From an uncultured Gemmatimonadota bacterium (lineage in GTDB: Bacteria > JAAXHH01): 64,000 bases of DNA. This document shows, piece after piece, positions 6,624-64,000 of this stretch. The position numbers and the translations under genes are program-made. Every line of letters starts with the position of its first letter. Position 1 is the first letter of the stretch. The notes under the pieces were generated by a model. The model had not been told where the DNA came from. It made no database searches and saw only the letters and a program-made list of their open reading frames with translations. The stretch lies in NCBI GenBank assembly GCA_951812955.1, contig OX638340.1, forward strand, positions 2,464,001-2,528,000, in the 5' to 3' direction.

Positions 6624-7803
6624 CTCCGCTCCCGGGTTGGCGCAGGCGGAGCGCCCTGGCTTTAAGGCTGTCACGACGTGCGCGATAGGCGTCCTCGCCA
6701 AGTCCTCCAGCCTCAAACTGGTCGTCCAACGTGGCCAGGGCCTGGATGATCGCGGCATACTTGCGCTCGTCTTCCGGCGAGAGATCGGCAGTGGCCGGGG
6801 GTTCGTCCGCCTGTTCGGGCTTGACGCGGATGCCCACGACGAGCCCGGCGGCGACGATGAGCACCACGAATCCCAGCATGCTCCACTTCATGACGTCCTG
6901 CCAGGCCAGTATGCGGGGAAAGGCGACCTCCACCGACATGCCCCGCCCCACGCCCACGCGGTTCGACAGCAGCAGGTATTCGTCTTCGGCGATCTGCTGC
7001 ACGCCGTCGTTGGTCAGGTTGGTGGCCGTCACGGTCTCACTGCTGGGTGAAACCAGTACCTGGACGCGGGCTACGCCATAGTCCATCTGCCGCGTGAACC
7101 GGTGATCGATGGATGCCCTGTCCAAGTCGTAGGCGTACACGATCCGGGCGACCCCGGGGGAAATGGGCGCCGAGAAAACCAGGCCGCGGTCGGTGTGCTG
7201 AAGCCCGTCCACCATCGGCTGAAGTCCAAAGGCTTCGGCGGGGAGGGTGTAGACAAGTCCCATCCCCAAGCTGGGCGGCGGCGCGAAGGTCAGGTTTCCC
7301 CGGTTCTCCACGACGATAATTTCCGTGATGGTCAGTACATCGGGATTGGCTTCGACGACCAGGTGGACCGCGCTGTGGACCAGGGCGCTCTCATCCGTCG
7401 TGATGTCGTACACCTGGAGCGGGACTTCCTGCCGTCCGGCGCCCGGTTCAAGGGGAATATGGCCTGTCAGGTAGGGCATCTCCAGGTACCGGGTGGCGAC
7501 CACATAGTGAGAGCCGTCAGCCGCCAGTCCGGTGAATTCGTACCGGCCATCGCGATCGGTGACCACCCTTGCCAGGGTTGCGTCCGGACCCTCTTCGCTG
7601 CTGTGATTCAGCAGGACCACCTCGTGTCCGGCCATCGGCAGGCCGGTGGTACCGTTTACGACGGTGAGGCCGATGCTGCCCGTTTCCTGGGCCTGCGCGG
7701 GTCGGGCTGGCCAGAACCCGCAGACCGTCAGGGAGACAAGGGCCACCAGGGCCGCATAATAAACAAAAAGCCCCGAAGGGCTGGCGTGAAGTTGATGTTT
7801 CAT
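6616..7803 (-). CDS. hypothetical signal-peptide protein with a carboxypeptidase-regulatory-like (transthyretin-fold) domain, a C-terminal TM helix and a SHOCT-like cytoplasmic tail
   Basis: N-terminal signal sequence; GSIGLTVVNGTTGLP...DRDGRYEF CarboxypepD_reg-like segment; TM WSMLGFVVLIVAAGLVVGI; tail LDDQFEAGGLGEDAYRARRDSL. Confidence 0.5.
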   Translation of the reverse strand: MKHQLHASPSGLFVYYAALVALVSLTVCGFWPARPAQAQETGSIGLTVVNGTTGLPMAGHEVVLLNHSSEEGPDATLARVVTDRDGRYEFTGLAADGSHYVVATRYLEMPYLTGHIPLEPGAGRQEVPLQVYDITTDESALVHSAVHLVVEANPDVLTITEIIVVENRGNLTFAPPPSLGMGLVYTLPAEAFGLQPMVDGLQHTDRGLVFSAPISPGVARIVYAYDLDRASIDHRFTRQMDYGVARVQVLVSPSSETVTATNLTNDGVQQIAEDEYLLLSNRVGVGRGMSVEVAFPRILAWQDVMKWSMLGFVVLIVAAGLVVGIRVKPEQADEPPATADLSPEDERKYAAIIQALATLDDQFEAGGLGEDAYRARRDSLKARALRLRQPGSGDG

Positions 7804-7807
7804 GGGA

Positions 7808-8434
7808 TCAGTTCGAGATCAGTATAGTGCCGCACTGCGCACAGAATTTAGCTGTGGCGGGGTTTTCCGTTCCGCAGCCTTCGCACGTTATGCGCGTCAG
7901 CGAAGCGCCACACTCGATGCAGAATTTCGCGGATTCCTCGTTGACTGTACCGCAGCCACCGCATGACTGGCCACTCACGGGCTGCACGGGCTGAGCGGGC
8001 TGCACGGGCTGCACGGGCTGAGCGGGCCGCTTCTCGGAGTTCTTAGTTGCTTCAACGGGCGCTTCAACGACGGCCGCCCCGGGTTCCCTGCGGCGGCGGA
8101 TCTCCAGCACCGCCTCTTCGATCTGTTCCTCTACAGGCAGATCGCTGCCGGCGGTCCGGTCCAGTTCGTCCAGCACGTCGGAGGCTTCATTCATGTACTC
8201 CTGCCGGAGCGCTTCATGATCCTCGGCGGCCAGCTTGCCCATGCTGTAATCGATGTTCAACTCGCGGATGGACGAATAGATGAAGTCCTTCTTCTTCTGC
8301 AGGTCGTCCCGTCGGGCCAAGGCGGCCCACGCGGACCGGGCGGACCAGGGGCGGCGGTCCGATCTTTCCAGCATTGGACTTATCATGTAGGCGAGTACGC
8401 CCAGTGCGAGCAGTCCGCACGCAAGCAGTGTCAT
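7808..8434 (-). CDS. membrane-anchored double zinc-ribbon protein with PAQPVQ repeats
   Basis: N-terminal TM; four CxxC pairs in the C-terminal 55 aa (CGGCG, CIECG, CEGCG, CAQCG); 9-nt tandem DNA repeats at 7981-8029. Confidence 0.5.
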   Translation of the reverse strand: MTLLACGLLALGVLAYMISPMLERSDRRPWSARSAWAALARRDDLQKKKDFIYSSIRELNIDYSMGKLAAEDHEALRQEYMNEASDVLDELDRTAGSDLPVEEQIEEAVLEIRRRREPGAAVVEAPVEATKNSEKRPAQPVQPVQPAQPVQPVSGQSCGGCGTVNEESAKFCIECGASLTRITCEGCGTENPATAKFCAQCGTILISN

Positions 8435-45628: not shown

Positions 45629-48337
45629 TCATTCCAGCGACCGGAGCAGGACGTCCTGGGCGGCTTCGAAACCGGGCGCGATCTCCAGGGCTTTCAGCGC
45701 GGCCTTCCTGGCGTCGTCCTTCCTTCCCGCCGCCAGGTACGCACGAGCCAGGTCGTATTGCGCCTGAACCCTGTCGGTGGTTTCAACCGCCAGTACCGCT
45801 TCGTAATCCGGAACGGCGAGATGAGGCCTCCCGTCCCCTTCGAACAAGCTGCCGCGCAGTTTCCGGACCTCCCCGTCAAAGGGATCGATCATGACGGCGC
45901 GTTCCAGAATTCGGAGTGCGTCCCCGCGCCTGCCTTGACGGGCATACAGCCGGGCCAGCGTCTTGCAGGACGCGATATCGTCCTCATCCACGGCCGTAAT
46001 CGCCTCGAGTACCTCCATCGCCGCTTCGGTGTTGTCCAGCTCGAGGTAGATTTCCGCCAGCAGTTCGTGAGGATTGCCGGGGTGCGTGTAATGCCCGTAG
46101 AGGGCCCGGGCGCGTTCGAGCGGCGACACGGCTTCTTCGAAACGCGCCTGTGCGTGCAATGCCTGGCCCAGCATAAGGTGGGCGTAGAAACTCTCCGGGT
46201 GGCCGTCGGCCATCTCCTCCAGTGCAGCCAGGGACAGCTTCTCGTTCCCCGGCGGCTTGAATCGAAGTACGCGCCGGAGTCCGGCGCTCCGCTTCCCGGC
46301 ATAGTCCGCGAAAGCCCGGTCGAGGTCGCCCATGGACACTCCCAGCACCTCGCGAACGATTTCAGCGGTGGTTCGATTCTCGTTGTACAGGTTCAGCATG
46401 CCCCGGACCGCGTCGAATCCAAAGGCGTCCACGATGTATTCCACGACGATCGAGGCCTGGTAGTAGGAAAGGACGACCTGGCCACGGGATTTAGGCCGGG
46501 TGAAACCCCGGTTCAGCTCGCTGACGGCGAGCAATTCGCCCTGGACCGCCGCCTCCGCAAATTCCGCCTCCAGGTCCATGTCCCACTCAGGTCGGGCGAG
46601 ACGGGTCTCGTAGACGGCGATGCCCTCCGCCAGCCAGCGGGGGATGCGGTTGCGCGTCTGCTGCAGATGGATGACGTGGACGTACTCGTGCCAGAGCGTC
46701 TGGCCCCAGTTGAACGTCCCCTTTTCCCGGGCGCGGGGTGAATTCGCTACCACTACCTCCCCGAAACAGACCCCGAGCAGGCCGCCGGTCCCCGGCACGC
46801 CGGCGATACGCACCATGAAGTCGTCGTTGTCCGGCAGGATCTCGACGAGCACGGGTTCATCCGGCACGAAGCCGTATCGCGGCGCGATCGTCCGGTGGGC
46901 TTCTTCGAGCAGGCCAAGGGCCATTTTACCGTAAACGGCATCTTCGTCGCGATGAAGCTTCAGCGTGAAACGGTCGCTGGTCCGGGTCTCGAAATCTTCG
47001 AAGGAATCGAGTAGCTCCAGCGTATTGTACGTGCGGGTATTGAAGGAGTCTTTGTCGAACGCCTGTTCAAGCATTCGCCGGCCTTCCGCCATCTCGCCGA
47101 CACGGGTCAGGTTGATCCCCAGCCCGGCATAGGCCGACCAGAGAGCGGGGTCGGTTTCGATCGCCCTGCGGCCCATTTCCACGGCCTCCCGGAACCGGTA
47201 GCGCCGCGTAAGTAGGTCGGCGATGACCTCATAGAGCCGGCCATAGGAAGGATTGATCCCGAGAACGCGCCTGCGCGCCGCTTCGTATTCGGCCTCGCGG
47301 CCCTGGCCATGATAGGCGGCGGCCAGCAGGGCATGGGTCTCCGGTGATTCCGGGTTGACAACCAGGGTTTGATTCAACTGGCCGATCGCATCGTCATAGG
47401 CTTCGTCCGTCAGGTGGAGTTCCGCGAGGAAATGGCGTCCCTCCATTAACGCTGGGTTGATCGCGAGCGCCTTCCGCACCGCGGCCTCCGCCTGTACCGC
47501 CTGTTTCTCCGCAAGCGCTTCGGCGAGTCCGATCAGGGCCGGTGGATAGTCGGGGTCGATTTTCAGTGCGTCTTCGAAGACGGAAACCGCCTCCGCCCGG
47601 TTGTGCTTGTCGAGGAAGAGGCGGCCCCACGCTACGTAGGCATCGATTAATTCGCTGTCGACACGGGTCGCCGCCGTCAGAAAGGTGTTGGCCTCGTGAA
47701 CCAGCTCAAGGTACTTCGCGGCGAGTCCCGCGGCCATCAGGTCCGGTGCGTTCGGCAGCCCATCCGTTCTGCTGCCTTTCAGTATGTCGCGGCACAGCTC
47801 GAGGGCTTCCGCCGTCCTGCCCGTCGTGAAATACACCTCCGCGAACCGGAGGGTGGCCAGGGAAGGCCTCCCCCGGGTAAACCGCCTGGCGTCCAGCGCA
47901 GACTCCGCTTCGTCGTACCTCCCCAGGCGCAGGTACAGGCTACCCAGCAACTCGCGCATCTCGTTCGTTGCGCCCGCGACCCCCGCCTCGCTCGAGGCAT
48001 CCGCCTTCCCCACCTCGCCCGTCAGAAGTTCGACGGCCTGCCCATACTGGCCGACAGACGCGTGAAGCCGGGCCAGCGCCAGGGTCATTTCAATACGGCG
48101 CGTCTCCTCCCCGCGGTCACGGGCTTCGGCGGTGAACAAGCGGGCATTCCGCCTCGAAATCTCCGATCGGAGTCCATCGATCCGGTCCACGTAGCGCTGG
48201 CGCGCCGCGCGTCCTTCTTCAAACGCTTCTTCGAAGGCGGCGCCGTCCTGGGCGGATGCTCGGGGACCGATTCCCGCCACGGTGAGCAGGAGTAAAACCG
48301 GGAGCAAATGGACGGATCGTATCATGACGGAACGCAC
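45629..48337 (-). CDS. secreted TPR-repeat protein with an embedded HExxH (HEYVH) metallopeptidase-like segment
   Basis: signal peptide; multiple TPR-like repeats; WHEYVHVIHL motif. Confidence 0.6.
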   Translation of the reverse strand: MRSVMIRSVHLLPVLLLLTVAGIGPRASAQDGAAFEEAFEEGRAARQRYVDRIDGLRSEISRRNARLFTAEARDRGEETRRIEMTLALARLHASVGQYGQAVELLTGEVGKADASSEAGVAGATNEMRELLGSLYLRLGRYDEAESALDARRFTRGRPSLATLRFAEVYFTTGRTAEALELCRDILKGSRTDGLPNAPDLMAAGLAAKYLELVHEANTFLTAATRVDSELIDAYVAWGRLFLDKHNRAEAVSVFEDALKIDPDYPPALIGLAEALAEKQAVQAEAAVRKALAINPALMEGRHFLAELHLTDEAYDDAIGQLNQTLVVNPESPETHALLAAAYHGQGREAEYEAARRRVLGINPSYGRLYEVIADLLTRRYRFREAVEMGRRAIETDPALWSAYAGLGINLTRVGEMAEGRRMLEQAFDKDSFNTRTYNTLELLDSFEDFETRTSDRFTLKLHRDEDAVYGKMALGLLEEAHRTIAPRYGFVPDEPVLVEILPDNDDFMVRIAGVPGTGGLLGVCFGEVVVANSPRAREKGTFNWGQTLWHEYVHVIHLQQTRNRIPRWLAEGIAVYETRLARPEWDMDLEAEFAEAAVQGELLAVSELNRGFTRPKSRGQVVLSYYQASIVVEYIVDAFGFDAVRGMLNLYNENRTTAEIVREVLGVSMGDLDRAFADYAGKRSAGLRRVLRFKPPGNEKLSLAALEEMADGHPESFYAHLMLGQALHAQARFEEAVSPLERARALYGHYTHPGNPHELLAEIYLELDNTEAAMEVLEAITAVDEDDIASCKTLARLYARQGRRGDALRILERAVMIDPFDGEVRKLRGSLFEGDGRPHLAVPDYEAVLAVETTDRVQAQYDLARAYLAAGRKDDARKAALKALEIAPGFEAAQDVLLRSLE

Positions 48338-52681: not shown

Positions 52682-53176
52682 ATGATCACTATTCACAAGG
52701 TGTTAATGGTATTATTGGTCCTGTCTGTAACCGCTTGTGGCGATGATGGTCAACCGAAGCAGGCAGGTCAATCGCAAATGGCTGGCCAACCGGACCAGGT
52801 TGGTCAAACGCCAACGGCAAGCCGACCGGACCCTGTGGCCGACCAGAAAGCTGGTATTTATCGGCCCACTACGGTGGACACGAAAGCTGAGATTGTTTAT
52901 TTTCCCCCTGTTCCCACCGACGTCGTCGATCTCGAATTCGATGGCCTCACAGTGATACAACTCGTTGTTGGTACTAATGGCAATGTAGACACGGCATTCG
53001 TCGAAAGATCGTCAGATCGCGTTTCTGTGGACTCTCTGATGCTGGACGTGGCTAAAAAAATGGTCTGGACGCCGGCAGTACATGACGGTGCCCGGGTAAA
53101 GATGCGAACCTCGATCCCGTTTATGTTCAAGATACCCACTCCAACCCCTGGCGAGGAGACCGTCACCGAGGAATAA
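52682..53176 (+). CDS. lipoprotein with a TonB C-terminal-like domain
   Basis: lipobox LSVTAC; Pro/Gln-rich linker; C-terminal about 90 aa TonB_C-like. Confidence 0.5.
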   Translation: MITIHKVLMVLLVLSVTACGDDGQPKQAGQSQMAGQPDQVGQTPTASRPDPVADQKAGIYRPTTVDTKAEIVYFPPVPTDVVDLEFDGLTVIQLVVGTNGNVDTAFVERSSDRVSVDSLMLDVAKKMVWTPAVHDGARVKMRTSIPFMFKIPTPTPGEETVTEE

Positions 53177-53534
53177 GGATCAACGTGAGATACCCCGCAG
53201 ATCGACCGTGAATGCCCTCGTCTTATCAAACCTGCTGTTTCGTTTCGAAGGAGTTACATATCCGGGCGAAGGCCCAAGCAGGCCTTCTATCCGGGAATTA
53301 CGCACGCCCAGGTGCGCAATCCGTTTTTCAATCTACGAAACCCGCTCATCAAGGTGGGCGATACGGTCGCCCAGGCGTATATCGAGTTGAGATATGCGGG
53401 TATCGAGGCTGCGCCAGACAAAGAGCAGGATCCCGATTGCGACGACATTGCTTATGACGTTTGTGGCGTCCACGATCATCTCTTGACTATGTTATTTAAA
53501 AAGTTCCAGCTTCGACATCCTTCGATCTACCTGG

Positions 53535-53612
53535 TTCTGCCAGAACCGGATTGGCCCGAAACGGCCACGTATTCGCCCCGGTTAATGGTGGCGTATACAC
53601 CCCGCAACGCGG
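53535..53612 (-). pseudogene. 5'-deleted fragment of an ABC ATPase gene paralogous to 51077-51769
   Basis: about 75% nt identity to 51640-51700 (codons 26-58 of the intact ATPase) with frame-breaking indels; joined directly to element copy 2, implying a ~115-nt deletion that removed the start codon. Confidence 0.5.
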
Positions 53613-53644
53613 TATAGTCGTGGTTTGGTGGGAAATCTCGTAAC
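53613..53644. repeat. copy 2 of the conserved ~30-nt element
   Basis: TATAGTCGTGGTTTGGTGGGAAATCTCGTAAC. Confidence 0.6.
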
Positions 53645-53793
53645 AAAAGGCTTTGACAAGGAAAGTGTAAGTGTCGTTCGAATGAAAGAGCATTGTACTG
53701 TGGTCAGGAGGTAATTACTTACCATAGACCCGAACGGCTGAAGCAAATGGTGCTAAGAAACAACCACAATCAGAAGTGTTACTTGCTACTGCC

Positions 53794-56193
53794 TTATTCT
53801 GCTTTGAGTGCATCAGCAGGATTCGCCGTCGCGGCTTTCAGCGCATGGTATCCGACCGTAAACCAAGTGATCGTAAGCGCGGCGAGCCCCGTGAGAATGA
53901 ACATCCACAAACCTATTTCGATACGGTACGGAAAACCTTCCAGCCACCCCTGCATGATGTAGTAACTGATAGGTACGCCAAGAACGAGAGCGATCAGGAT
54001 CAGCCAGGTAAAGTCCTTCGACAACAGCAGGATGACGTTCGAAACCGTCGCACCGACTGCCTTGCGAACGCCGATCTCCCTGGTCCGCTGTTCGGCCATG
54101 TAGGACGCCAGTCCCAACAAGCCCAGACAGGCGATCAGAATGGAAAGCGTCGCTCCGGCGATGAAGACGGACCCCAGCCGTTGTTCGGCGGCGTACTTTT
54201 GCTCGAGATCCTGGTCGAGGAAGTAGAATTCCATGGCGGGATGGTTCGGATAGGTTTCGCGCCACTGGTCCTGCAGTATTTCAAGTCCCTGGGTAAGGCT
54301 CTGGCTGCGCAGCCTGGCTACCATCGTATTGCCACCTTCCCAAAACAGAATCAAAAGCGGTTCAATGCGTTGGTGTAGCGTATGGTAGTGGAAATCCGCC
54401 ATGACGCCGACAACGTGCATTGGAGGATAGTCGGGTGTATGGGTATAGGTAAACGTCTTACCAATCGGGTCTTCCCATCCAAAAGACCTGGCAGCCGTTT
54501 CGTTGATAAGAACTGAGTAGTTGTCCGAAGCGACTGCGCGAGAAAACGTACGTCCCGATATTATCTCGATGCCCATTGTTTCTACGAAGTCGAAACCGGT
54601 CCAGATTGTGGGGATGAGCGGGGTATCCTCCACGATATATCCTTCCGGCTGAATGAAACTGGTAGCAGTTAGTCTGCCGGGCACGCTGGTTGTTGTGCTC
54701 AGGTTTACGATTTCAGGATACTGCATCACCTTGTTCCGGAAGGCCGGGAAACCCTGGACGGTCTCATAATCAGGCAGTCGTATAACTACCACGTGCTCTT
54801 TATCGAATCCCAGTTTCTTGTTTCCGATGTACTCCAGTTGCTCCAGTATAACCAACATTCCGACGATCATGATGATCGAGACGACGAACTGGAAGGTGAT
54901 CAGCGCTTTTCTGATAAGCGACGGTGAAACTCCCGTCTTCAACGCTCCGCTAAGTACGACAGCCGGCCTGAAAGAGGAAAGTACGAGGGCTGGGTATCCT
55001 CCGGCGATAATCCCGGTACAAAGTGCGATGGCCGCCAGGGCCGGCATCAGCCACGTGGATTGATAATCCATCTCCAGTGCCTTTCCCGAAAACCGGCTGA
55101 ACTCGGGCAGGAGCAGGTGTACCAGTGCCAGCGCCACGGCCAGGGCGATGAAGGCGAAGAAAACCGACTCGCCGATGAATTGCCCGATCAACTGGACCCG
55201 CTGGGCGCCCAGCACTTTCCGAATACCGACCTCCTGCGCCCGTCGTGCCGAACGGGCCGTGGATAGGTTCATGAAGTTCACGCAGGCGATCAGCAACATG
55301 AATATAGCCACCGAGGTGAAGATGTAGACATATCGAATGTCGCTGTTCGCTTTTATCTCAAGTTTGAAATTGGAGTGCAGATGGATATCGGTGAGCGGCT
55401 GCAGATAGGGTCTGAATTCCATGCCCAGCGTCTCCAGTCGTTCACCGAGGTGCCTTACCGGAAACTGGGGAAGTTTGTCTTCCAGGTCTTCCGGCGCGTA
55501 TCCCTCTTGAATCAGGAGATAGGTATACAGGGTTCTGTCCATGTTCTGGATCGTGGTCGGCTCGTTGTATATCCCGCTCGCCGAGAGAGTGGAAAACGAA
55601 GCAAGAAAGTCGGCGCGAAAATGCGAGTTCTTTGGCATATCGCGCATGATGCCCGTGACGGTAAACATGTAGATTTCGTCTGCGGAAATCACTTTCCCAA
55701 TCGGGTTCTCATTCCCGAAAATCATCTCCGCCATGGTTTCGGAAACGACAACGGTATGGGGTTTAGTCAGGGCCGTCTGGGGATTGCCCTGAACCAGAGG
55801 GAAGGTGAAAATGTCAAATACGGTTGAATCCGCAAAAATGAAGTATTTCTCCTCATAACTTTTTTCTTCGTAACCAATGAGCCAACTGGAATCCGGCGGC
55901 TTCCACCGGGTGAACTGCTCAATTTCTGGATACTCCTCCTTCAGGACCGGACCCCACGCTGATGGCGTCCTCGCCCATTCGTCCGTTCTGCCTTCCGCGG
56001 TACCAGATACCACTATTCGGTAAATCCGGTCTTTGCGCTCGTGGTGCTGATCGTAACTGAGCTCGTCCTCCACGTAGAGCAGGATCAGAATGCAGGAAGT
56101 CAGACCGATGGCCAGACCCAGGACATTAATCGTGGAATAGCCCCTGTGCCTGAACAGGTGCCTCAAAATGACGGTAACGTAGTTTCTGAACAT
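53794..56193 (-). CDS. ABC transporter permease with two FtsX domains (MacB-like, about 800 aa)
   Basis: MacB_PCD-like N-terminus and two four-TM FtsX modules. Confidence 0.85.
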   Translation of the reverse strand: MFRNYVTVILRHLFRHRGYSTINVLGLAIGLTSCILILLYVEDELSYDQHHERKDRIYRIVVSGTAEGRTDEWARTPSAWGPVLKEEYPEIEQFTRWKPPDSSWLIGYEEKSYEEKYFIFADSTVFDIFTFPLVQGNPQTALTKPHTVVVSETMAEMIFGNENPIGKVISADEIYMFTVTGIMRDMPKNSHFRADFLASFSTLSASGIYNEPTTIQNMDRTLYTYLLIQEGYAPEDLEDKLPQFPVRHLGERLETLGMEFRPYLQPLTDIHLHSNFKLEIKANSDIRYVYIFTSVAIFMLLIACVNFMNLSTARSARRAQEVGIRKVLGAQRVQLIGQFIGESVFFAFIALAVALALVHLLLPEFSRFSGKALEMDYQSTWLMPALAAIALCTGIIAGGYPALVLSSFRPAVVLSGALKTGVSPSLIRKALITFQFVVSIIMIVGMLVILEQLEYIGNKKLGFDKEHVVVIRLPDYETVQGFPAFRNKVMQYPEIVNLSTTTSVPGRLTATSFIQPEGYIVEDTPLIPTIWTGFDFVETMGIEIISGRTFSRAVASDNYSVLINETAARSFGWEDPIGKTFTYTHTPDYPPMHVVGVMADFHYHTLHQRIEPLLILFWEGGNTMVARLRSQSLTQGLEILQDQWRETYPNHPAMEFYFLDQDLEQKYAAEQRLGSVFIAGATLSILIACLGLLGLASYMAEQRTREIGVRKAVGATVSNVILLLSKDFTWLILIALVLGVPISYYIMQGWLEGFPYRIEIGLWMFILTGLAALTITWFTVGYHALKAATANPADALKAE

Positions 56194-56323
56194 GACGTAT
56201 TATCAGTGCCGATTTATGGACGATCGTAGAGATCGCTTAATAGCGTGCTCGACTATGTTCAGAGTGCTTTCCACGTGCAAAGTGCTTCGGTTTTCGTAAT
56301 CTGGATGCCCCGTCCATCGTCGG

Positions 56324-58198
56324 TCAACCATGTTCAGAGTCCTTCAGCACTTCAATTTTGGTCTGTCCGCTTTCCGTAGCGATTACGACATCGGTATTCC
56401 CATATTCATAGGTTGTCCCTAACGACATTCTAATGTTATTACTCGACCATGCATTGAGAGGCATCAATTCCTTTACCTCTTCATACTTCAGTACACCGCA
56501 ACGGGTATGCATAACCAAGCTGGTAGTTTTCGCTGCTTTTTCGCTTAACGCCAGTATCAGGTTGCCGGAAACGGTACGGAGGTTGCACCTGCCCCTTCGA
56601 ATACCGTCAGTGTAGCACAGCCGAGTGGTGCCATAGCGGTTGAAAATGGAAACATCTCCATTTAGATCACGTGCATCCAACACAGTACGACCGACTTCCA
56701 TATCCACACCGCCACTGATTGACTCGATCTTTCCTTCCCACTGATCTGGGCGTGCTAACATGTCGTGATCCAAGCTGCTTCCCCCACAGCCGTACATACG
56801 CTGATATACCAATCCGCTTACCTGTCGTATTTTGGAGAACTCGCTGTTGAAAAGATAGACATCTCCTGTGATTCCCTGTATATGGCAGGAATAGCAGGAA
56901 TACATTAAAAGTGAACCTTTCAAACCATCCACATTGACCTTATTGGATCTGAAAACCGACATTCTCATCCCGGCGGGAACCGAAATCGACATATGGCAAT
57001 ACGTGGCATGGCCGAATAGATTCGTTTCGTCGGTACAAACAGCTTCGAAAATATCCTCGACATTGCCTGACACGGTCGCTCTCGGCAATTCTATGGGTCG
57101 TACATTCGAAGTGTGAACAGTGATACGTAGTGATTTCCCCAGACTGTTTCCCACAGGTTTCGGCAGGGGCAGAAATCCGTCGACTTCATGCTTCAAATCT
57201 GGAAACATGTCGACCGTTCTTACACCGCCGACATTATCCTCCAGCACGCGGTCATTAATCAGATCACTTCTCCAGAATTTACTGATTGGCGACGTAGCGG
57301 CTACGTAATCAGATCCATAAGGGTTGCTGGTACCAAGAAACAACGCCCCTTCGTGGGGGCCTGTTTCCAGGTAGTTGGCGACCTGGTCATGAGATATATG
57401 AAAGCCGCTGAGGTTGCTTCGCGATTCTTCTTCCGTCAGACCCAACGCGATCTTCGAACCTTCAACAATAACCTGTTTTCCCTGTGCCTGCTTAATATCG
57501 ACCTCCGTATTCACGCCGCAGTAGAGGACAATGTTTTTCGTGTCTCCCATGTCTATGGTTTCACTGAAATCTTCTCTGGCGATCTTGCAGACCACATCCT
57601 GTACTTCATCGGTCACATCGATCTGGCTCATGGCGATGGTCTCCTTTTCCTGAGGCGACAGTGCTGCTCTCAGCCGGATCCGGGACTGGAATAGCCGTCC
57701 TTTCACCGTCGATTCGGGAATGTCCAGAAACGAGGCGATTTCCTTCAGTGAAAAACCGGTGTAGTAGTACAAATTGACGATCTGGCGATAGTGTTCGGGC
57801 AGTCTCTCGACTTCATCCCAAAGCTCGAGACACTCGAGGTATTCCCGATGGATCTGGTCCGCCAGGGGGAATTCGTCGCGCATATGTTCAGCATCCGGAT
57901 CGACTCGGACCAGACGATCAACCTTCTTCCGACGGCGCGATTCCTTGCATCGGTTGACGACGATTCTGTGAAACCAACTACCGAAAACGGCCGGGTCCTT
58001 CAATTGCGACAACTTGCAGTAAGCGGCAACGAATGCATCCTGTACCACGTCCTCCGCGTCTGTTCGATCCCGAAGGAATCCCAGCGCTACGGCGAAAGCG
58101 GCGTTCTGGTACCGCCGGACCAGCGGCTCGAAGGCGTCGGCGTTTCCCTGCAGGCACTGCAGGATGCTGTAAGTGTCGTCGTGTGTTGTTTTCGCCAT
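56324..58198 (-). CDS. ECF sigma factor (about 185 aa, regions 2 and 4) fused to a ~430-aa C-terminal extension of unknown function
   Basis: sigma-2 DAEDVVQDAFVAAY...FGSWFHRIVVNRC and sigma-4 LYYYTGFSLKEIASFLDIPESTVKGRL; no TM; conserved Cys cluster YCHMSI...CYSCH. Confidence 0.75.
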   Translation of the reverse strand: MAKTTHDDTYSILQCLQGNADAFEPLVRRYQNAAFAVALGFLRDRTDAEDVVQDAFVAAYCKLSQLKDPAVFGSWFHRIVVNRCKESRRRKKVDRLVRVDPDAEHMRDEFPLADQIHREYLECLELWDEVERLPEHYRQIVNLYYYTGFSLKEIASFLDIPESTVKGRLFQSRIRLRAALSPQEKETIAMSQIDVTDEVQDVVCKIAREDFSETIDMGDTKNIVLYCGVNTEVDIKQAQGKQVIVEGSKIALGLTEEESRSNLSGFHISHDQVANYLETGPHEGALFLGTSNPYGSDYVAATSPISKFWRSDLINDRVLEDNVGGVRTVDMFPDLKHEVDGFLPLPKPVGNSLGKSLRITVHTSNVRPIELPRATVSGNVEDIFEAVCTDETNLFGHATYCHMSISVPAGMRMSVFRSNKVNVDGLKGSLLMYSCYSCHIQGITGDVYLFNSEFSKIRQVSGLVYQRMYGCGGSSLDHDMLARPDQWEGKIESISGGVDMEVGRTVLDARDLNGDVSIFNRYGTTRLCYTDGIRRGRCNLRTVSGNLILALSEKAAKTTSLVMHTRCGVLKYEEVKELMPLNAWSSNNIRMSLGTTYEYGNTDVVIATESGQTKIEVLKDSEHG

Positions 58199-58475
58199 AG
58201 GGTAGTTGTCGTCTTAAGGGTTTCGTACAAAATCAGATAATAAGGAAGCGTTACATAGAATAAGATGACCTTGCGGCCTCAACGGTTAAAAACAAAATCG
58301 TGTATATGGTGGCGGTCAGGTCTCGAAGAGTTGAAATACGGCCTATCCCCTCATGGAATGACCTTTCGAGACCGACAACGCAGATTTTGGGGTCGATTCG
58401 TATCGGTAGGTTCAGATTCAAAAGGATGCACGACTCATGACCGGTATCGGAAGCGTATTCAACTTCCTATCACGC

Positions 58476-58506
58476 ATAGTCGTGGTTTGGTGGGCAATTT
58501 CGAACG
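58476..58506. repeat. copy 3 of the conserved ~30-nt element, between the two sigma-fusion paralogs
   Basis: ATAGTCGTGGTTTGGTGGGCAATTTCGAAC. Confidence 0.6.
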
Positions 58507-58537
58507 TACAGTTACCTGCGGGGTTCGAGACTTAAAC

Positions 58538-60412
58538 TCACTTCATCGCGTCGGGGCCATCTGACAACTCGACTTCGGCGGTGCCACTTTCTGTAAGGAG
58601 CAGATAGTCCGCGTGCGTTGTATCATACGTAGTTCCGGCCGTGATGCGATGCCCGTCGTTATATGTCGAATAGAGCCGCATCACGTCCTTTGCCTGACCC
58701 AATTTCAAGACGCCACAACGCGTATACATCACAACGCTGACCGTCTTTGCGAGTCTTTCATCCAGAACCAGCTTTGCCTCGCCAGAGACGGTCCTGAGGT
58801 TACAACGAGTTCCGGATTCCCGGGATGACTGGTACAAGCGGGTTGTACCGAATCGGTTGTAAATGGATACGTCACCCTCCAGGTCCTGCGCGTCCAGCAC
58901 GAAACGGCCGACATCGATATCCACACTGCCCTTTATATTGGATAGTTTTCCTTCCCACACATCCGTGTTGCGTATCATTCCGTCAAGGTAGCTCGCGGCG
59001 CCGTATTCATACATTCGCTGACAGAACACACCGCCTACTTCATGTATATCCGAAAACATGCTGTTGAACAGGTACACATCCTTCGAGATACCGGTTATCT
59101 GGCAGGAATGGCAGGCATACACCATCAAGGAACCGTTCAATCCCTCCGCGTTGATCCGCTTCGCCTTGAACACCGAAATGTTCTTTCCGGCCGGGACCTC
59201 AATAGAAACATGACAGTACGAGGCCGGTCCGAAAACCTTGGAATCATCGGACCAGTAAACCTGGAAAACATCCTTGATGCTTTCCGTCATGGCGGAGTTC
59301 GGTACATGAATCGGCCGTACTTCCATCGTGTGAACCGAAATCCGTATTGATTTGCTCAAGCTCGCACGCGCCGGTTTTGGCAGCGGAGGAAACGTATCGA
59401 TATCGTCTTTAAGATCCGGGTACAGATCGACCAATCTCACCCCGTTACAAACTTCGTCCAGCATCCAGTCGTTCATCAGATCCCGTCTCCAGTGGTCGCT
59501 GATCCGTTTGGTCATAGCTGCGTTTTCGCCACTGGTTGAATCTACACCGACAAAAAGCTCACCTTCATGGGGACCGGCTTTATAGAAATCATCGACCGTA
59601 TCGTGGGAAACGGCAAATCCGCCAAGGTTGAGGGTTGCCTCTTCTTCGCTAAAACCAAGCGCGATCTTCGAACCTCTCACAACAACCTGTTCTCCTTGCG
59701 CCTGCTTAATCTCAACCTCCGTACTCACGCCGCAATAGAGGACGATGTTCTCTACGTCGCCCATGTCGATCGTTTCTACAAAATCCTCCTTGGCGATCCG
59801 GCAGACAACATCCTGGACCTCTTCGGTTACGTCGATCTGGCTCATGGCAATGGTCTCCTTTTCCTGTGGGGACAACGCCTCTCTCAGCCGGATTCTGGAC
59901 TGATAGAGGCGTCCCCGCGCCGTGGATTGCGGAATGTCCAGAAAGGCAGCGATTTCTTTCAGTGAGAAGCCGGTGTAGTAGTACAACGTGACGACCTGGC
60001 GATAAAGTTCCGGGAGCTGCTCGACTTCATCCCAGATTTCGAGACGCTCGATGTATTTTTGATGGATACGATCCGACATAGCGAATTCATCGCGAGATTC
60101 TCCAGAAACCGTATCGACGCGGACTTGACGACCGATTCTGCTTCGTCGGACCAGCTCCTTGCAACGGTTGACAACGATTCGGTGAAACCAACTGCCGAAA
60201 ACGGCCGGGTCCTTCAACTGCGACAGCTTGCAGTAGGCGGCCACAAAAGCATCCTGTACCACGTCCTCCGCGTCTGTTCGATCCCGAAGGTAACCCAGAG
60301 CCACGGCGAAAGCGGCATTCTGGTACCGCCGGACCAGCGGCTCGAAGGCGTTGGCGTTTCCCTGCAGGCACTGGCGGATGTTATAGGTATCGTCGTGTAT
60401 GAGAGTGGTCAT
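58538..60412 (-). CDS. paralogous ECF sigma factor fused to a ~430-aa C-terminal extension
   Basis: same architecture and length (624 aa) as 56324-58198; N-terminal 185 aa nearly identical. Confidence 0.75.
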   Translation of the reverse strand: MTTLIHDDTYNIRQCLQGNANAFEPLVRRYQNAAFAVALGYLRDRTDAEDVVQDAFVAAYCKLSQLKDPAVFGSWFHRIVVNRCKELVRRSRIGRQVRVDTVSGESRDEFAMSDRIHQKYIERLEIWDEVEQLPELYRQVVTLYYYTGFSLKEIAAFLDIPQSTARGRLYQSRIRLREALSPQEKETIAMSQIDVTEEVQDVVCRIAKEDFVETIDMGDVENIVLYCGVSTEVEIKQAQGEQVVVRGSKIALGFSEEEATLNLGGFAVSHDTVDDFYKAGPHEGELFVGVDSTSGENAAMTKRISDHWRRDLMNDWMLDEVCNGVRLVDLYPDLKDDIDTFPPLPKPARASLSKSIRISVHTMEVRPIHVPNSAMTESIKDVFQVYWSDDSKVFGPASYCHVSIEVPAGKNISVFKAKRINAEGLNGSLMVYACHSCQITGISKDVYLFNSMFSDIHEVGGVFCQRMYEYGAASYLDGMIRNTDVWEGKLSNIKGSVDIDVGRFVLDAQDLEGDVSIYNRFGTTRLYQSSRESGTRCNLRTVSGEAKLVLDERLAKTVSVVMYTRCGVLKLGQAKDVMRLYSTYNDGHRITAGTTYDTTHADYLLLTESGTAEVELSDGPDAMK

Positions 60413-60442
60413 GTTGAATCAAATCGAAGTCTGAATGCAGTT

Positions 60443-61441
60443 TTAGTCGAGATATGCATCAAAAGCCGCCAGCAGTGAAGGATAGTAATCTTCGAAGGTC
60501 ATATCTTGAATATGATGCTGCTCGAAATCCTCAAGTGCTCGAATAAGGGCGGGGAGGTAGTGAAACCCCTTTTCTATATCTCGCACGAGTAAACGATCAC
60601 CGTGTTTTGGACCCGTTTCTCTATGAAACAATCGAGACGTAATGGCGCGTATCAAATGTTCGTTCAAGCATATCTCCCAAGCCCCATAGCCACCCGCCTT
60701 AGCCATTTTATCTAGTATCGGGTCCAACAATGAGGCGTACTTCCCGATGTCAGGGCGATGTCGTTCAGTAACGGGATTAACGAACGAATGGCCGAACTCA
60801 TGCCAGATGAGTTCCAGCAATTCGTCTCTTGTTCCATACACCGGAATACCTTCAACCGATCCGACAGGCCCTATCACGCTGAATATGGACAGCCTGTTAT
60901 CAGGATGTCGGACTCGAGGTCCGATCCCACCGTGTTGAAACAAGGGGCTCAAAACCAGGTTGTAGTCACGATGTCGCATTCCATAGTATTGTTCCAAGAC
61001 GTCGATCAAATTCTCACTGCCCAGTGTTTGAAAAACTGTGTCAATTAAGGATTTGTAGTACGTGGTTTGGCTTTCAAAAAAAGTACCAAAGTCCGATTGG
61101 ATCGCAAAATCACTCAGTAGTTTGTAGAATGTTCGAAACCGGGTTTCGCCTTGAAATGCTCGAATGTAGTATTCGTAGTTTTCGTACGGGAATATAGGTG
61201 TGAGTCCCGGCAGTTCCGACAGCGACAACACCGGACCCAGGTAGGCGTCCGAGTAAGTACCATTCTCTGTGATTTTCCTAAACAGCTTGACTGCCTCATG
61301 CGTTTTGAATGGCGAAAAGTAATCCCGCATGTACTGGGAATACGCCACATCGTACCTGGTTAGTCCTTCATAGTCGCACAGCAACTTTATAGTGATGACA
61401 AGTTCAATTCTGGGATCTACGTCGATGCTCAGCCTGGTCAT
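60443..61441 (-). CDS. HExxH-motif (WHEFGH) putative zinc metallopeptidase-like protein, cytoplasmic
   Basis: 332 aa; no signal peptide; ELLELIWHEFGHSF. Confidence 0.5.
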   Translation of the reverse strand: MTRLSIDVDPRIELVITIKLLCDYEGLTRYDVAYSQYMRDYFSPFKTHEAVKLFRKITENGTYSDAYLGPVLSLSELPGLTPIFPYENYEYYIRAFQGETRFRTFYKLLSDFAIQSDFGTFFESQTTYYKSLIDTVFQTLGSENLIDVLEQYYGMRHRDYNLVLSPLFQHGGIGPRVRHPDNRLSIFSVIGPVGSVEGIPVYGTRDELLELIWHEFGHSFVNPVTERHRPDIGKYASLLDPILDKMAKAGGYGAWEICLNEHLIRAITSRLFHRETGPKHGDRLLVRDIEKGFHYLPALIRALEDFEQHHIQDMTFEDYYPSLLAAFDAYLD

Positions 61442-61503
61442 CTCTATTTCTCCGTGCTCGGCGAAAGGAGTCGGTATATCTCGACCGAGGATACCGAATG
61501 CAC

Positions 61504-62394
61504 TTACCGTCCGTACCCGCTTTCTTTAAAAAAACGTAGCGCATCGGGGCCGTCCTTTATGGCCAGAATGTCCTCAATAGCCGCCTTTTTATCAGCCCTC
61601 TTCTCGTAGTATGCTTCACATATCTTGTACCCTACGTAGTATCCAAGGTCAGCAGGCCTTGCTCCCGTGCCGCTGCCGCCGTTGTAGAGCCATTTGCTCA
61701 TATCGGTTTGTAACATTTCATTCGAGAACGATTCCCACAATTCAGTTTCGTGCGCCTCTCCATACACGTGCAAATGAGGGTTGATGTGTTTTCCAGTTGC
61801 TAACTCTCCAAGGAAATCGGCAGCACCTTCGAGTATGGAGTGACCCAGTAGTGTGTTTTCTCCAAAATCATAGGCCTGTTGAGTGTGTATAAGTTCGTGG
61901 ATAACGATAAATGGAATCTCTTCTACCGGTTTGAGGACTTCAAGATACCATTCGTTCAGTTCGTCCGAAGGAAGATCGTCCGTCCGGCACCAAATTTCGG
62001 TCCCGATCAGCAGCCCATTGCTCGACGTTGTTCCGCCGGAGGTCATTTTGCCAATCATAAAGTACACATCTGGAAAATCTGCCTTACTGTATAGTTGCTT
62101 CCAGTTGTGCATATACCCACGGATCTGATCGGTCAAATCCAACACACGGTTTGAACTCTCTCTTATAGAAGCGTAATACCTCGGTCGGGCTTCGATTACC
62201 TTGACCAACTCATCCGCACTCTCGATTCTGGATTCGATGAAATCTTTTAAACCGATACTGCCCTTTGCGAAGTACTCCGATTCGAAGATGTTTATCATTT
62301 CTTCTGTAGTCTTGCCTTCTGACAGGTCGTACGCCAGCCAGAAACGATCGATATCGGAAGTAACCAACCGGACGTCGTCGGGATCGTTACTCAT
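61504..62394 (-). CDS. HExxH-motif (IHELIH) putative zinc-dependent protease-like protein (DUF2268-like)
   Basis: 296 aa; no signal peptide; FIVIHELIHTQQ...GENTLL; GGGAGG SD. Confidence 0.5.
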   Translation of the reverse strand: MSNDPDDVRLVTSDIDRFWLAYDLSEGKTTEEMINIFESEYFAKGSIGLKDFIESRIESADELVKVIEARPRYYASIRESSNRVLDLTDQIRGYMHNWKQLYSKADFPDVYFMIGKMTSGGTTSSNGLLIGTEIWCRTDDLPSDELNEWYLEVLKPVEEIPFIVIHELIHTQQAYDFGENTLLGHSILEGAADFLGELATGKHINPHLHVYGEAHETELWESFSNEMLQTDMSKWLYNGGSGTGARPADLGYYVGYKICEAYYEKRADKKAAIEDILAIKDGPDALRFFKESGYGR

Positions 62395-62796
62395 TGAGGA
62401 AAACCTCCCTGTTTGCTGAGCATAGGCTATTGCGAAACTCGTACCAGCAGAAATACCAACAAAGGACCATGCACGTCTCGAATCTCGTTGAGTTCATAAC
62501 AGACATGATCATGGGTCTAGTTTTCCTTTGCCAGTCTGCACCCTGTGAAGAAGTCTGAATCGGTCGACCGTATGTTGACCGTACATGGTTTACAGGTGTT
62601 GATTGCCCGATGAGGGACATAACCCTCTGATAGTTTAGACGCTTCAGTACTCCAATTGATCAAAATCGAATTTGTTGGTTCTGTGAATTTGCAAATGAGA
62701 AGTCCACACACGATCATAAGAGGGACATTTACACATCGTACGTTTTGTCCTCAATTTCGTGGTCTGGTTGTTCACTGTATACACCCCACCGCATCA

Positions 62797-62824
62797 TTGA
62801 CACCGGCACCGATTCCCTTATATT
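62797..62824 (+). promoter_or_regulatory. sigma70-like promoter (TTGACA, 16 nt, TATATT) for the redoxin gene
   Basis: read directly in the AT-rich intergenic region. Confidence 0.4.
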
Positions 62825-62908
62825 CTATATATAGGTATTACTACATATAAAAAGGATCACGAGAGCAGGCTGAATACCATTAGCATTTCAAACTGAACAG
62901 GAGTAGTC

Positions 62909-63403
62909 ATGGCGTTCCTGGAAGCCGGGGTCGCGGCCCCGGAAGTCACCCTGGAAGACGCGGACGGACAATCGACGTCGCTGGCCGACCTGACTAACGG
63001 CGGCTGGTTGCTGGCCGTCTTTTACAAGGTGGGCTGCGGGACCTGCAAGTTCAGCGCCCCCTATTTCGAGAAGATCCACCAGGCTTACGGCGGCAAGCAG
63101 GGATTCCGGGTGCTCGGTGTCTCGCAGGACACGCCGGAGGACACCCGCGCTTTCATGGACGAACACGGCGCTTCCTTCGAGAACGTGTACGACGCCACCC
63201 ACTGGGCCTCCGCGGATTTCGGCCTGACGAACGTGCCGACGTGGTTTCTCATGGACGAAAACGGCGGCATACTGGACAGCAACACGGGCTTCTGCCGGAC
63301 CGACCTCAACGAGTTGTCGGTGACCGTCGCGGCCCATCTCGGCGAAGAGGCCGTTGTCATTTCGCCGGGGGACGACGGCGCGCCCGAACTGAAGCCTGGA
63401 TGA
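62909..63403 (+). CDS. thioredoxin-fold thiol-disulfide oxidoreductase (TlpA/redoxin family) with a CxxC motif
   Basis: WLLAVFYKVGCGTCKF. Confidence 0.65.
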   Translation: MAFLEAGVAAPEVTLEDADGQSTSLADLTNGGWLLAVFYKVGCGTCKFSAPYFEKIHQAYGGKQGFRVLGVSQDTPEDTRAFMDEHGASFENVYDATHWASADFGLTNVPTWFLMDENGGILDSNTGFCRTDLNELSVTVAAHLGEEAVVISPGDDGAPELKPG

Positions 63404-63644
63404 GGCTCCAAACAACCGGTCGGGCCTCGACCGTAACCCGGACATAAGAAAACGAAACCTGGAAGGCGGCCGCTTCGGCCCGGATCGAATGTTCCCGGCG
63501 CCGGAGGGTCGCTTTTTGTTCCTGTAGAGCGCAAATGATGCCGGTAAATCTGACGTCATGCCGGCCACGGTAGCGCTGAACCATACGAATCTTCACGCGT
63601 CGACCTCAGGATCACGTGCATCACAGCGGGAACATCAAGGAACC

Positions 63645-64000
63645 ATGAGCGAATCGACTACATCCCACGTCCCCAAGCCCCCGTGGCTCAAGGTACGCCT
63701 GAAGCAGGGGCCGAACTTTCGGGAACTGAAGCGCCTGGTCGGAGACAACCGGCTTCACACCATCTGCGAGAGTGCCCAGTGCCCGAATATCTGGGAATGC
63801 TGGGAGCAGCGGACCGCCACCTTCATGATTCTGGGAGATATTTGCACGCGAAGCTGCGGGTTCTGTGCGGTGAAGACGGGCCGGCCGGACAAGGGGCTGG
63901 ACTGGGACGAGCCCGAGCGCGTGGCCGGGGCCGTGGAGAAGCTGGGCCTGCGGTTCGCCGTGATCACCTCGGTCAACCGGGACGAGCGGACCGACGGCGG
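63645..64000 (+). CDS. lipA: lipoyl synthase, 3'-truncated by the window end
   Basis: PKPPWLKVRL...CESAQCPNIWECW...CTRSCGFCAV radical-SAM and auxiliary cluster motifs. Confidence 0.85.
   Translation, partial: MSESTTSHVPKPPWLKVRLKQGPNFRELKRLVGDNRLHTICESAQCPNIWECWEQRTATFMILGDICTRSCGFCAVKTGRPDKGLDWDEPERVAGAVEKLGLRFAVITSVNRDERTDG

Follow-up and report, generated by a model that had tools for sequence, protein, structure and literature searches.

In the last 10 kb of a 64,000-nucleotide stretch of DNA from an uncultured Gemmatimonadota bacterium (contig OX638340.1 of assembly GCA_951812955.1, positions 2,464,001 to 2,528,000 of the forward strand; hereafter the 64-kb window), two genes for proteins with an HExxH motif, termed A and B, begin a string of co-oriented minus-strand genes. 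The string continues with two fusions of an extracytoplasmic function (ECF) sigma factor to a large C-terminal domain, termed sigma fusions 1 and 2, and with an FtsX/MacB-type permease. An initial annotation of this DNA had placed both HExxH genes directly upstream of, and co-oriented with, a sigma fusion, and they are indeed intact minus-strand open reading frames (ORFs) at that position. It had further suggested that the two proteins, as cytoplasmic proteases, could release the sigma domain. Our comparison does not support that proposal, because the pairing is not conserved, A was ancestrally secreted, and the linker of the sigma fusions is kept where A and B are missing. We lean instead, with reservations, towards a reading of the sequences in which A and B are optional, lineage-specific cargo carried 5′ in an ECF sigma operon that regulates itself, as its outputs (regulon members) and not its activators.

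On this cargo reading, an ECF-type promoter (P1) would drive A, B and sigma fusion 1, and a second copy (P2) would drive sigma fusion 2, probably together with the permease. The link of A and B to the sigma fusion would go back to the shuffling of modules between redoxin and TonB-like genes, in a locus that is hypervariable and low in GC. Because the linker is conserved with or without A and B, and the permease is a family-wide neighbor, control of the sigma domain would more likely run through the fused Toastrack-type β-helix and the conserved MacB-type permease, and a dedicated protease would not be needed. The genes of the string are:

62394..61504, minus strand: gene A, 296 aa, a DUF2268/GldB-like gluzincin-type protein, with no signal peptide as encoded
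61441..60443, minus strand: gene B, 332 aa, a DUF4932 gluzincin-type protein that starts at the mature-domain boundary
60412..58538, minus strand: sigma fusion 1, 624 aa, an ECF sigma domain (aa 1–185), a conserved linker and an all-β C-terminal domain of ~420 aa
58198..56324, minus strand: sigma fusion 2, 624 aa, a paralogue 62% identical to sigma fusion 1
56193..53794, minus strand: FtsX/MacB-type duplicated (ADOP-like) permease with Pfam MacB_PCD and FtsX ×2; TIGR03434 gives 286 bits, under its cut-off

Promoter-like motif and proposed transcription units

When the sequences preceding sigma2-type genes are aligned with those preceding sigma genes directly after redoxin, a conserved block becomes visible ~47–75 nt before the ATG. 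The block has the shape of an ECF promoter, consisting of TTTT(A/G)A(C/T)C, 16 nt and C(G/A)TCT (TTTTRAYC-N16-CRTCT). As a sequence motif, it agrees with what is expected of an ECF operon, namely an AAC-like −35 element and a CGTC-like −10 element, separated by 16–17 nt, upstream of a sigma-containing unit. Exactly two matches are present in the window when both strands are searched, where shuffled sequences predict 0, and a further conserved element overlaps the first of them:

62665..62637, minus strand: P1, ECF-type promoter-like motif TTTTGATC-N16-CGTCT, 243 nt upstream of the ATG of A and ~125 nt upstream of its ancestral leader ATG
62646..62616, minus strand: 31-nt element overlapping P1, conserved upstream of A in seven loci
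58291..58263, minus strand: P2, second motif copy TTTTAACC-N16-CATCT, 65 nt upstream of sigma fusion 2

Seventeen related loci contain 24 matches with at most one mismatch, versus ~1 in shuffled sequences. Besides the window, the motif is shared by L001, L005, L007, L009–L020 and L034. All 24 lie on the gene strand, and 21 of them precede the first gene of a module, be it A, FtsX or a sigma fusion. The motif stands upstream of A in every A-containing locus; across the related loci, the B–sigma1 and A–sigma gaps contain no copy, nor does the sequence before FtsX genes placed after sigma2. The spacers differ among module types, which argues that the sites are not one inherited copy. For the same reason, an nhmmer profile of the sigma2-type block recovered one site per locus and missed the A-linked sites, and the box-spacer-box pattern was used in its place. 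With these properties, the motif may serve as an autoregulatory promoter of the sigma fusions. One more conserved match, with one mismatch (TTTTAACCTGTTTYCCATCGCCTACGCCT), is found at L009:642, L011:906 and L015:2620, several kb upstream of the locus and beyond the lipoyl-synthase-like gene; it may mark another member of the regulon or be coincidental.

The gap between B and sigma fusion 1 measures 30 nt (60413–60442), as first annotated, and that between A and B 62 nt (61442–61503) instead of the 61 nt given initially. A consensus scan of the minus strand found no terminator-like site or hairpin between A, B and sigma fusion 1, and sigma fusion 1 has no promoter motif of its own. The short gaps, the lack of a terminator-like site, and a motif that precedes A but stands directly before neither B nor sigma fusion 1 together make co-transcription of A, B and sigma fusion 1 from P1 plausible. 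Sigma fusion 2 begins 339 nt beyond sigma fusion 1 and has its own promoter-like element, so the four genes do not form a single unit just because they are co-oriented. The co-transcription with the ECF fusions that was originally suggested is thus retained for sigma fusion 1 and dropped for sigma fusion 2. Across the loci, the arrangement of motifs points to three kinds of unit: P-A-(B)-sigma1, P-sigma2(-FtsX) and P-FtsX-sigma. Scans of the locus with sigma-70 promoter and terminator consensus patterns gave matches at or below shuffle expectation, and an Rfam scan of 53000–64000 found no RNA family, with no riboswitch or leader RNA in the long 5′ region of A.

Conservation of the neighborhood

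A search with the C-terminal domain of the sigma fusions yielded 91 protein clusters and 25 species-level genome loci; the window proteins were compared by tblastn with all loci. A tree of these domains, annotated with neighboring genes, was divided into a close clade (24 scored genes in 18 loci) and a distant clade (14 genes in 13 loci; 31–36% identity, in larger genomes labelled Latescibacterota). The pairing of A and B with sigma fusions is confined to a narrow Gemmatimonadota/Latescibacterota clade and, within it, to a single locus that is syntenic and hypervariable. Within the close clade, A is present in 10 and B in six of the 18 loci, and one or the other lies directly upstream of nine of the 24 sigma-fusion genes, while 14 of the 24 have neither nearby. 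In the distant clade, none of the 14 genes has A or B directly upstream or within ±10 kb. The context of B is kept only in close relatives (84–96% identity), metagenome-assembled genomes (MAGs) labelled Gemmatimonadetes or Ca. Latescibacterota.

The close-clade locus is anchored by a redoxin gene (85–91% identical), and its gene content varies between redoxin and the TonB_C/ABC ATPase/ComEC genes. In the window, two features lie on the other strand:

62909..63403, plus strand: redoxin gene, divergent from A
plus strand: partial divergent ORF, syntenic with a radical-SAM/LIAS_N (lipoyl-synthase-like) gene of L001 and L034 and assigned by that synteny

The architectures found at this locus are:

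A-B-sigma1(-sigma2): the window, L034, L001, L010 and L014
A-sigma: L007 and L013
sigma2-A-sigma1: L009 and L011
FtsX-sigma(-sigma): L005/L006 and L020
sigma alone: L012, L015, L016, L017 and L019

Farther afield, the two peptidase-like families are found in other company. Eighty metagenome loci carrying a 33–41% identical DUF4932 protein (492 kb in total) include none with the sigma C-terminal domain and none with DUF2268; an ECF-like sigma factor lies within 5 kb in three of them. The 43% and 37% identical homologues of B stand beside transposases or in unrelated context. Acidobacterial homologues of A adjoin Peptidase_S51 and Nramp genes, and no sigma factor was found next to the DUF2268 genes P0145, P0149 and P0195 outside the clade, or next to the in-clade paralogue P0130. 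With one syntenic locus in close relatives, 0 of 14 distant sigma genes and 0 of 80 DUF4932 loci, the idea of a neighborhood conserved across genomes is largely refuted.

Families, active sites and leader loss of A and B

Gene A scores above the gathering cut-offs of two Pfam models, PF10026 (DUF2268; 44.4 bits versus 23.6) and PF25594 (GldB_lipo; 43.1 bits versus 27). The DUF2268 assignment first guessed for HMM annotation is therefore right for A, and B belongs to DUF4932. Gene A is not the GldB gliding-motility lipoprotein itself, since the TIGR03514 equivalog model gives only 15.8 bits against a cut-off of 190. Its sole HExxH is IHELIH at aa 165–170 (HELIH, aa 166–170, nt 61899..61885), and the third ligand is Glu189 in EGAADF (nt 61830..61828). 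In an alignment of 22 diverse homologues, H166, E167, H170 and E189 are invariant, giving an HExxH-x18-E arrangement in an EGxADF context with the spacing of M1-type gluzincins. The family is large, with 1211 matches in a word-indexed search, and can be aligned over the full length of A.

Gene B is a full-length DUF4932 protein (PF16286; 178.5 bits versus 28.7), with residues 5–325 covering profile positions 2–331 of 332. WHEFGH at aa 213–218 (HEFGH, aa 214–218, nt 60802..60788) is its sole HExxH, so both motifs named in the initial annotation, IHELIH and WHEFGH, are the only ones of their proteins. The third ligand is Glu261 in LNEHLIRA (nt 60661..60659), which gives HExxH-x42-E. H214, E215, H218 and E261, as well as Y252 and W255, are invariant in the family (motifs HEFGHSF...NE(H)LIRA), and the HExxH is present in 140 of 147 DUF4932 representatives. 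PDB sequence searches with A and with B, as single sequences and as profiles, returned nothing significant; the catalytic domain of B is M1-like in its predicted structure. Profile-profile comparison finds no relation between A and B beyond the HExxH turn (probability 0.2), and we rejected the idea that they are paralogues. By their sequences, they appear to be two unrelated gluzincin-type (HExxH + Glu) zinc-peptidase-like proteins with presumed enzymatic activity. PADLOC defence models match none of A, B, sigma fusion 1 and the permease.

Both proteins resemble M1 enzymes without being members of that family. There is agreement with the MEROPS M1 family in a thermolysin-like catalytic domain with HExxH-x18-E, the spacing found in A, but both proteins lack the GxMEN exopeptidase and substrate-anchoring motif, and as single-domain proteins of 296 and 332 aa they have neither the N-terminal β-domain nor the C-terminal ARM domain of M1 enzymes. 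Sequence identity to leukotriene A4 hydrolase, aminopeptidase N and ERAP1 is only 10–21%. With the Pfam families DUF2268 ('predicted Zn-dependent protease'; YjaZ-like) and GldB_lipo, A shares HExxH-x18-E(G)xADF and full-length alignment, but, in contrast to the A of the window, members of these families typically have a signal or lipoprotein leader. Likewise, most DUF4932 proteins have a hydrophobic leader and often extra C-terminal domains, whereas B is a minimal leaderless form. A and B thus belong to existing uncharacterised Pfam families, and their leaderless state and placement in an ECF operon are a lineage-specific variant. Among the titles and abstracts returned by literature searches, which concern other topics, no DUF2268 member has a demonstrated activity and the function of DUF4932 is not described; at that level, nothing contradicts the initial statement that no described system pairs these families. 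The locus offers a first genomic context for both.

As initially stated, neither encoded ORF has a signal peptide; there is no hydrophobic segment either. No 19-residue window reaches a Kyte–Doolittle (KD) value of 1.6 in A (maximum 1.08), B (maximum 1.33) or the two sigma fusions, which are also without a transmembrane (TM) segment. The ORFs of A and B are maximal: each opens with the first start codon that follows a stop, and no upstream extension is possible. Both families are mostly secreted, and A and B are leaderless versions. For DUF4932, which comprises 2312 cluster representatives at E ≤ 1e-3, leaders were counted on the 120 top representatives with a locatable boundary: 110 have at least 15 residues before it, 104 of these with a hydrophobic peak (~87%), and ten start at the boundary. 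B starts exactly at the VDPRIEL mature-domain boundary with only 62 nt upstream, and every B orthologue found is leaderless.

The history of the A leader can be followed in the sequences around the gene. Homologues outside the clade (50–56% identity, 320–345 aa, annotated Acidobacteriota/Pyrinomonadaceae) have classic signal peptides ending in A-x-A-QQ, just before the position of Met1 in the A of the window. Close orthologues (P0109, P0111, P0113 and loci L013 and L014; 85–89% identity) retain the leader intact and in frame, with the pattern MIRSVM..RFK.R..C.F.CM.SV.TASAQQ(S/T)GS(F)SSM-NTNPNEV, and in them A is expected to be periplasmic or secreted. Directly upstream of A, the window holds:

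62395..62512, minus strand: frameshifted remnant of the ancestral Sec signal peptide of A (MIMSVMNSTRFETCMVLCWYFCWY / SFAIAYAQQTGRFSS), 118 nt, out of frame with A

This remnant aligns with the signal peptides of the acidobacterial homologues. The leader is broken by a 1-nt insertion near 62440, and removal of one base restores MIMSVMNSTRFETCMVLCWYFCWYSFAIAYAQQTGRFSS|MSND, colinear with L014; in addition, three of the four positive charges of the leader n-region are replaced in the window. The same insertion occurs in L034, an independent metagenome assembly whose proteins are 96–98% identical, and does not lie in a homopolymer, which rules out an assembly error and identifies it as a real mutation. 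The GGGAGG at 62409..62404, 9 nt before the ATG of A, was initially taken as a strong Shine–Dalgarno sequence. It is present as described, but it is former coding sequence, namely the Thr-Gly-Arg codons of the leader/mature junction. In L001, L007 and L010, a ~180-nt deletion has removed the entire leader segment, and the sequence upstream of A is different again in L009 and L011. The leader is thus intact in L013/L014, frameshifted in the window and L034 and deleted in L001/L007/L010, so these close relatives show at least two losses of different mutational origin. The cytoplasmic state of A and B, as read from their sequences, is derived. Positions 62387–62620 of the minus strand form an ORF of 77 codons, in the +1 frame, that holds the start of the former signal peptide and stops 4 nt after the ATG of A; this ORF (ATGAGTAA overlap) may be an upstream ORF coupled to the translation of A.

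Loss of the leader has not been followed by decay. All copies of A (eight orthologues) and B (four orthologues) are intact, of the same length and free of internal stops. Median ratios of nonsynonymous to synonymous substitution (dN/dS; Nei–Gojobori) are 0.13 for A (28 pairs) and 0.23 for B (six), compared with 0.15 for redoxin (28) and 0.125 for sigma fusion 1 (15), and leaderless copies of A among themselves give 0.13–0.18. Judged by these sequence data, A and B are under purifying selection and encode functional proteins with or without a leader. Because they are leaderless and yet under such selection, both proteins are in this lineage most likely intracellular, soluble and active as peptidases. 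The locus documents a secreted enzyme that has repeatedly shed its export signal under purifying selection.

Control of the sigma fusions and competing explanations

The ~420-aa C-terminal domain of sigma fusion 1 is predicted to be a β-helix of the Toastrack/DUF4097-DUF2807 type. A Pfam scan of the domain matched no Toastrack model, and PDB sequence searches with it, as a single sequence and as a profile, gave nothing significant. As described by Ravi et al. (2024, PMC11237479), Toastrack proteins form an intracellular fold class that is linked with transcription factors and ABC transporters; among the architectures in the part of that account drawn on here, none joins a Toastrack domain directly to an ECF sigma domain. 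The linker between the sigma domain and the β-helix, ALSPQEKETIAMSQIDVT, is highly conserved across the family, whether or not A and B are present. FtsX/MacB (ADOP-like) permeases are conserved neighbors of the sigma fusions across 31–88% identity, often on both sides; they flank the fusion in 10 of 13 distant loci and typically lie ~30–70 nt downstream. A literature search on ECF groups with an FtsX context returned nothing specific. Homologues that consist of the C-terminal domain only (435–438 aa; P0041, P0045, P0048 and P0069) suggested split genes, an explanation rejected for P0041 only: its ORF in L007 (3093–4967) is continuous with an upstream sigma domain, and P0041 is a gene call at an internal linker Met.

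If A and B are optional cargo, the locus represents ordinary biology with unusual details, an ECF sigma operon with such peptidase cargo in uncultured Gemmatimonadota/Latescibacterota MAGs; the names of several source records suggest that they may come from sponges or corals. The analysis then provides a candidate promoter motif for the sigma–Toastrack fusion family, whose real conserved partner is the MacB-type permease; together, the fusion, its permease and their common motif are a more interesting object than A and B, outside whose coordinates they lie. Several observations weigh against the cargo reading. The motif was defined partly post hoc on related, non-independent loci, so its statistics are indicative only, and FtsX permeases are so abundant in these phyla that a certain amount of chance adjacency is to be expected. 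In the sigma1 subclade, A directly precedes each of the seven genes or is separated from it by one gene, even though the module does not always stand in the same place relative to sigma2; this can be explained by dependence on the A promoter, but also by a functional interaction between A and sigma fusion 1, and the cargo reading does not account for such constancy. Nor does it account for the repeated loss of the leader of an exported peptidase despite purifying selection.

An unlikely alternative casts A and B as partners of MacB/FtsX-type ABC machinery, processing or degrading exported or extracted peptides, for example, with the sigma factor only regulating the set. It draws on the conserved permease neighbors and on two contexts away from the locus. 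FtsX/MacB permeases lie within 5 kb in six of the 80 distant DUF4932 loci (L044, L046, L053, L054, L057 and L058), directly downstream in L044 and L046, and a 70% identical DUF2268 paralogue (L035) sits inside a MacAB-like cluster, with a membrane fusion protein (MFP) gene directly upstream and response regulator, FtsX, MFP and ABC ATPase genes 0.8–6 kb downstream. Such adjacency is, however, likely by chance given the high expansion of ADOP/FtsX permeases in these phyla; moreover, the A-B-sigma-sigma block of L001 has no FtsX gene, and leaderless A and B would not share a compartment with the part of MacB that lies in the periplasm.

Slightly less likely again is that A and B were acquired horizontally, landed in a recombination-prone locus and are connected with the sigma fusions neither by regulation nor by function. 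The region at ~51.6–62.8 kb, which spans the TonB-like gene, the permease, both sigma fusions, A and B, has 45–55% GC versus 60–67% in its flanks, and gene content between redoxin and the TonB-like genes varies in close relatives. The nearest leaderless relatives outside the clade, the B-type P0008 (L004, 43%) and the A-type P0145 (L120, 54%), are each flanked by transposase/integrase genes, which hints that leaderless forms moved horizontally. Against mere hitch-hiking, the promoter-like motif of the sigma fusions also precedes A in every A-containing locus, with spacers that differ by module type, and in spite of several rearrangements A has kept its place directly before a sigma fusion.

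The explanation proposed first, that cytoplasmic A and/or B cut the linker of sigma fusion 1 (and 2) and free the ECF sigma domain from an inhibitory C-terminal β-helix, is improbable. Several features speak for it: A and B are co-oriented with sigma fusion 1, tightly spaced and probably under a common promoter, they have intact catalytic motifs without leader or TM segments, the strongly conserved linker could be a recognition site, and the seven sigma1-subclade genes all have A close upstream. However, the sigma fusions without A or B nearby (14 of 24 close, 14 of 14 distant) keep the same linker. A with an intact signal peptide occupies the same position in L013 and L014, so the adjacency is independent of a cytoplasmic location. 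B is absent from L007, L009, L011 and L013; the 80 distant DUF4932 loci contain no sigma fusion, the DUF2268 genes P0145, P0149, P0195 and P0130 are not beside a sigma factor, and both families are overwhelmingly extracytoplasmic. The conserved co-occurrence with the sigma-fusion family that marks a dedicated protease–sigma system is therefore lacking. Tight spacing and an attractive motif pointed to such a system, and comparative genomics disagrees, which calls for caution in similar cases.

Established protease control of ECF sigma factors differs as well. The availability of ECF sigma factors is controlled by site-1 and site-2 proteases such as DegS/RseP and PrsW/RasP; site-2 proteases are HExxH zinc enzymes. 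Those proteases are embedded in the membrane and cleave a separate transmembrane anti-sigma factor, whereas A and B are soluble and, like the sigma fusions, have no TM segment; neither protein has an HExxH inside TM helices. A narrower proposal, limited to the sigma1 subclade, is that B, and A where it is leaderless, form a newly recruited proteolytic switch that cleaves the linker between ECF sigma and Toastrack domains (candidate stretch ALSPQEKETIAMSQ). We give it the same low credence as the general proposal; were it true, the repeated, selected loss of the A signal peptide would be the footprint of an exported peptidase recruited to cytoplasmic regulation.

That A and B are decaying pseudogenes left after the loss of their export signals, as the frameshifted A leader in the window and the absence of both genes from many sister loci might suggest, is highly improbable, and we rejected it on the basis of intact ORFs of equal length, dN/dS near that of neighboring housekeeping-like genes even with leaderless copies included, and invariant catalytic residues.

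Some sister loci show signs of decay or assembly errors. FtsX is split into two gene calls in L034 (9613–12094), one sigma fusion of L020 has an in-frame stop (~5470), and the sigma2-type gene of L011 is truncated (6890–8155). In L016, the segment 1615–7400, beside a 70% identical DUF2268 paralogue, spans nearly 6 kb with only three ORFs of at least 120 aa, all shorter than 200 aa, and may be degraded sequence. Finally, a third MA-clan family of the HExxH type is encoded nearby in the window: a 902-aa TPR protein with a Peptidase_MA_2 domain (45629–48337, minus strand), which lies outside the variable block and is syntenic in L001 and L005.

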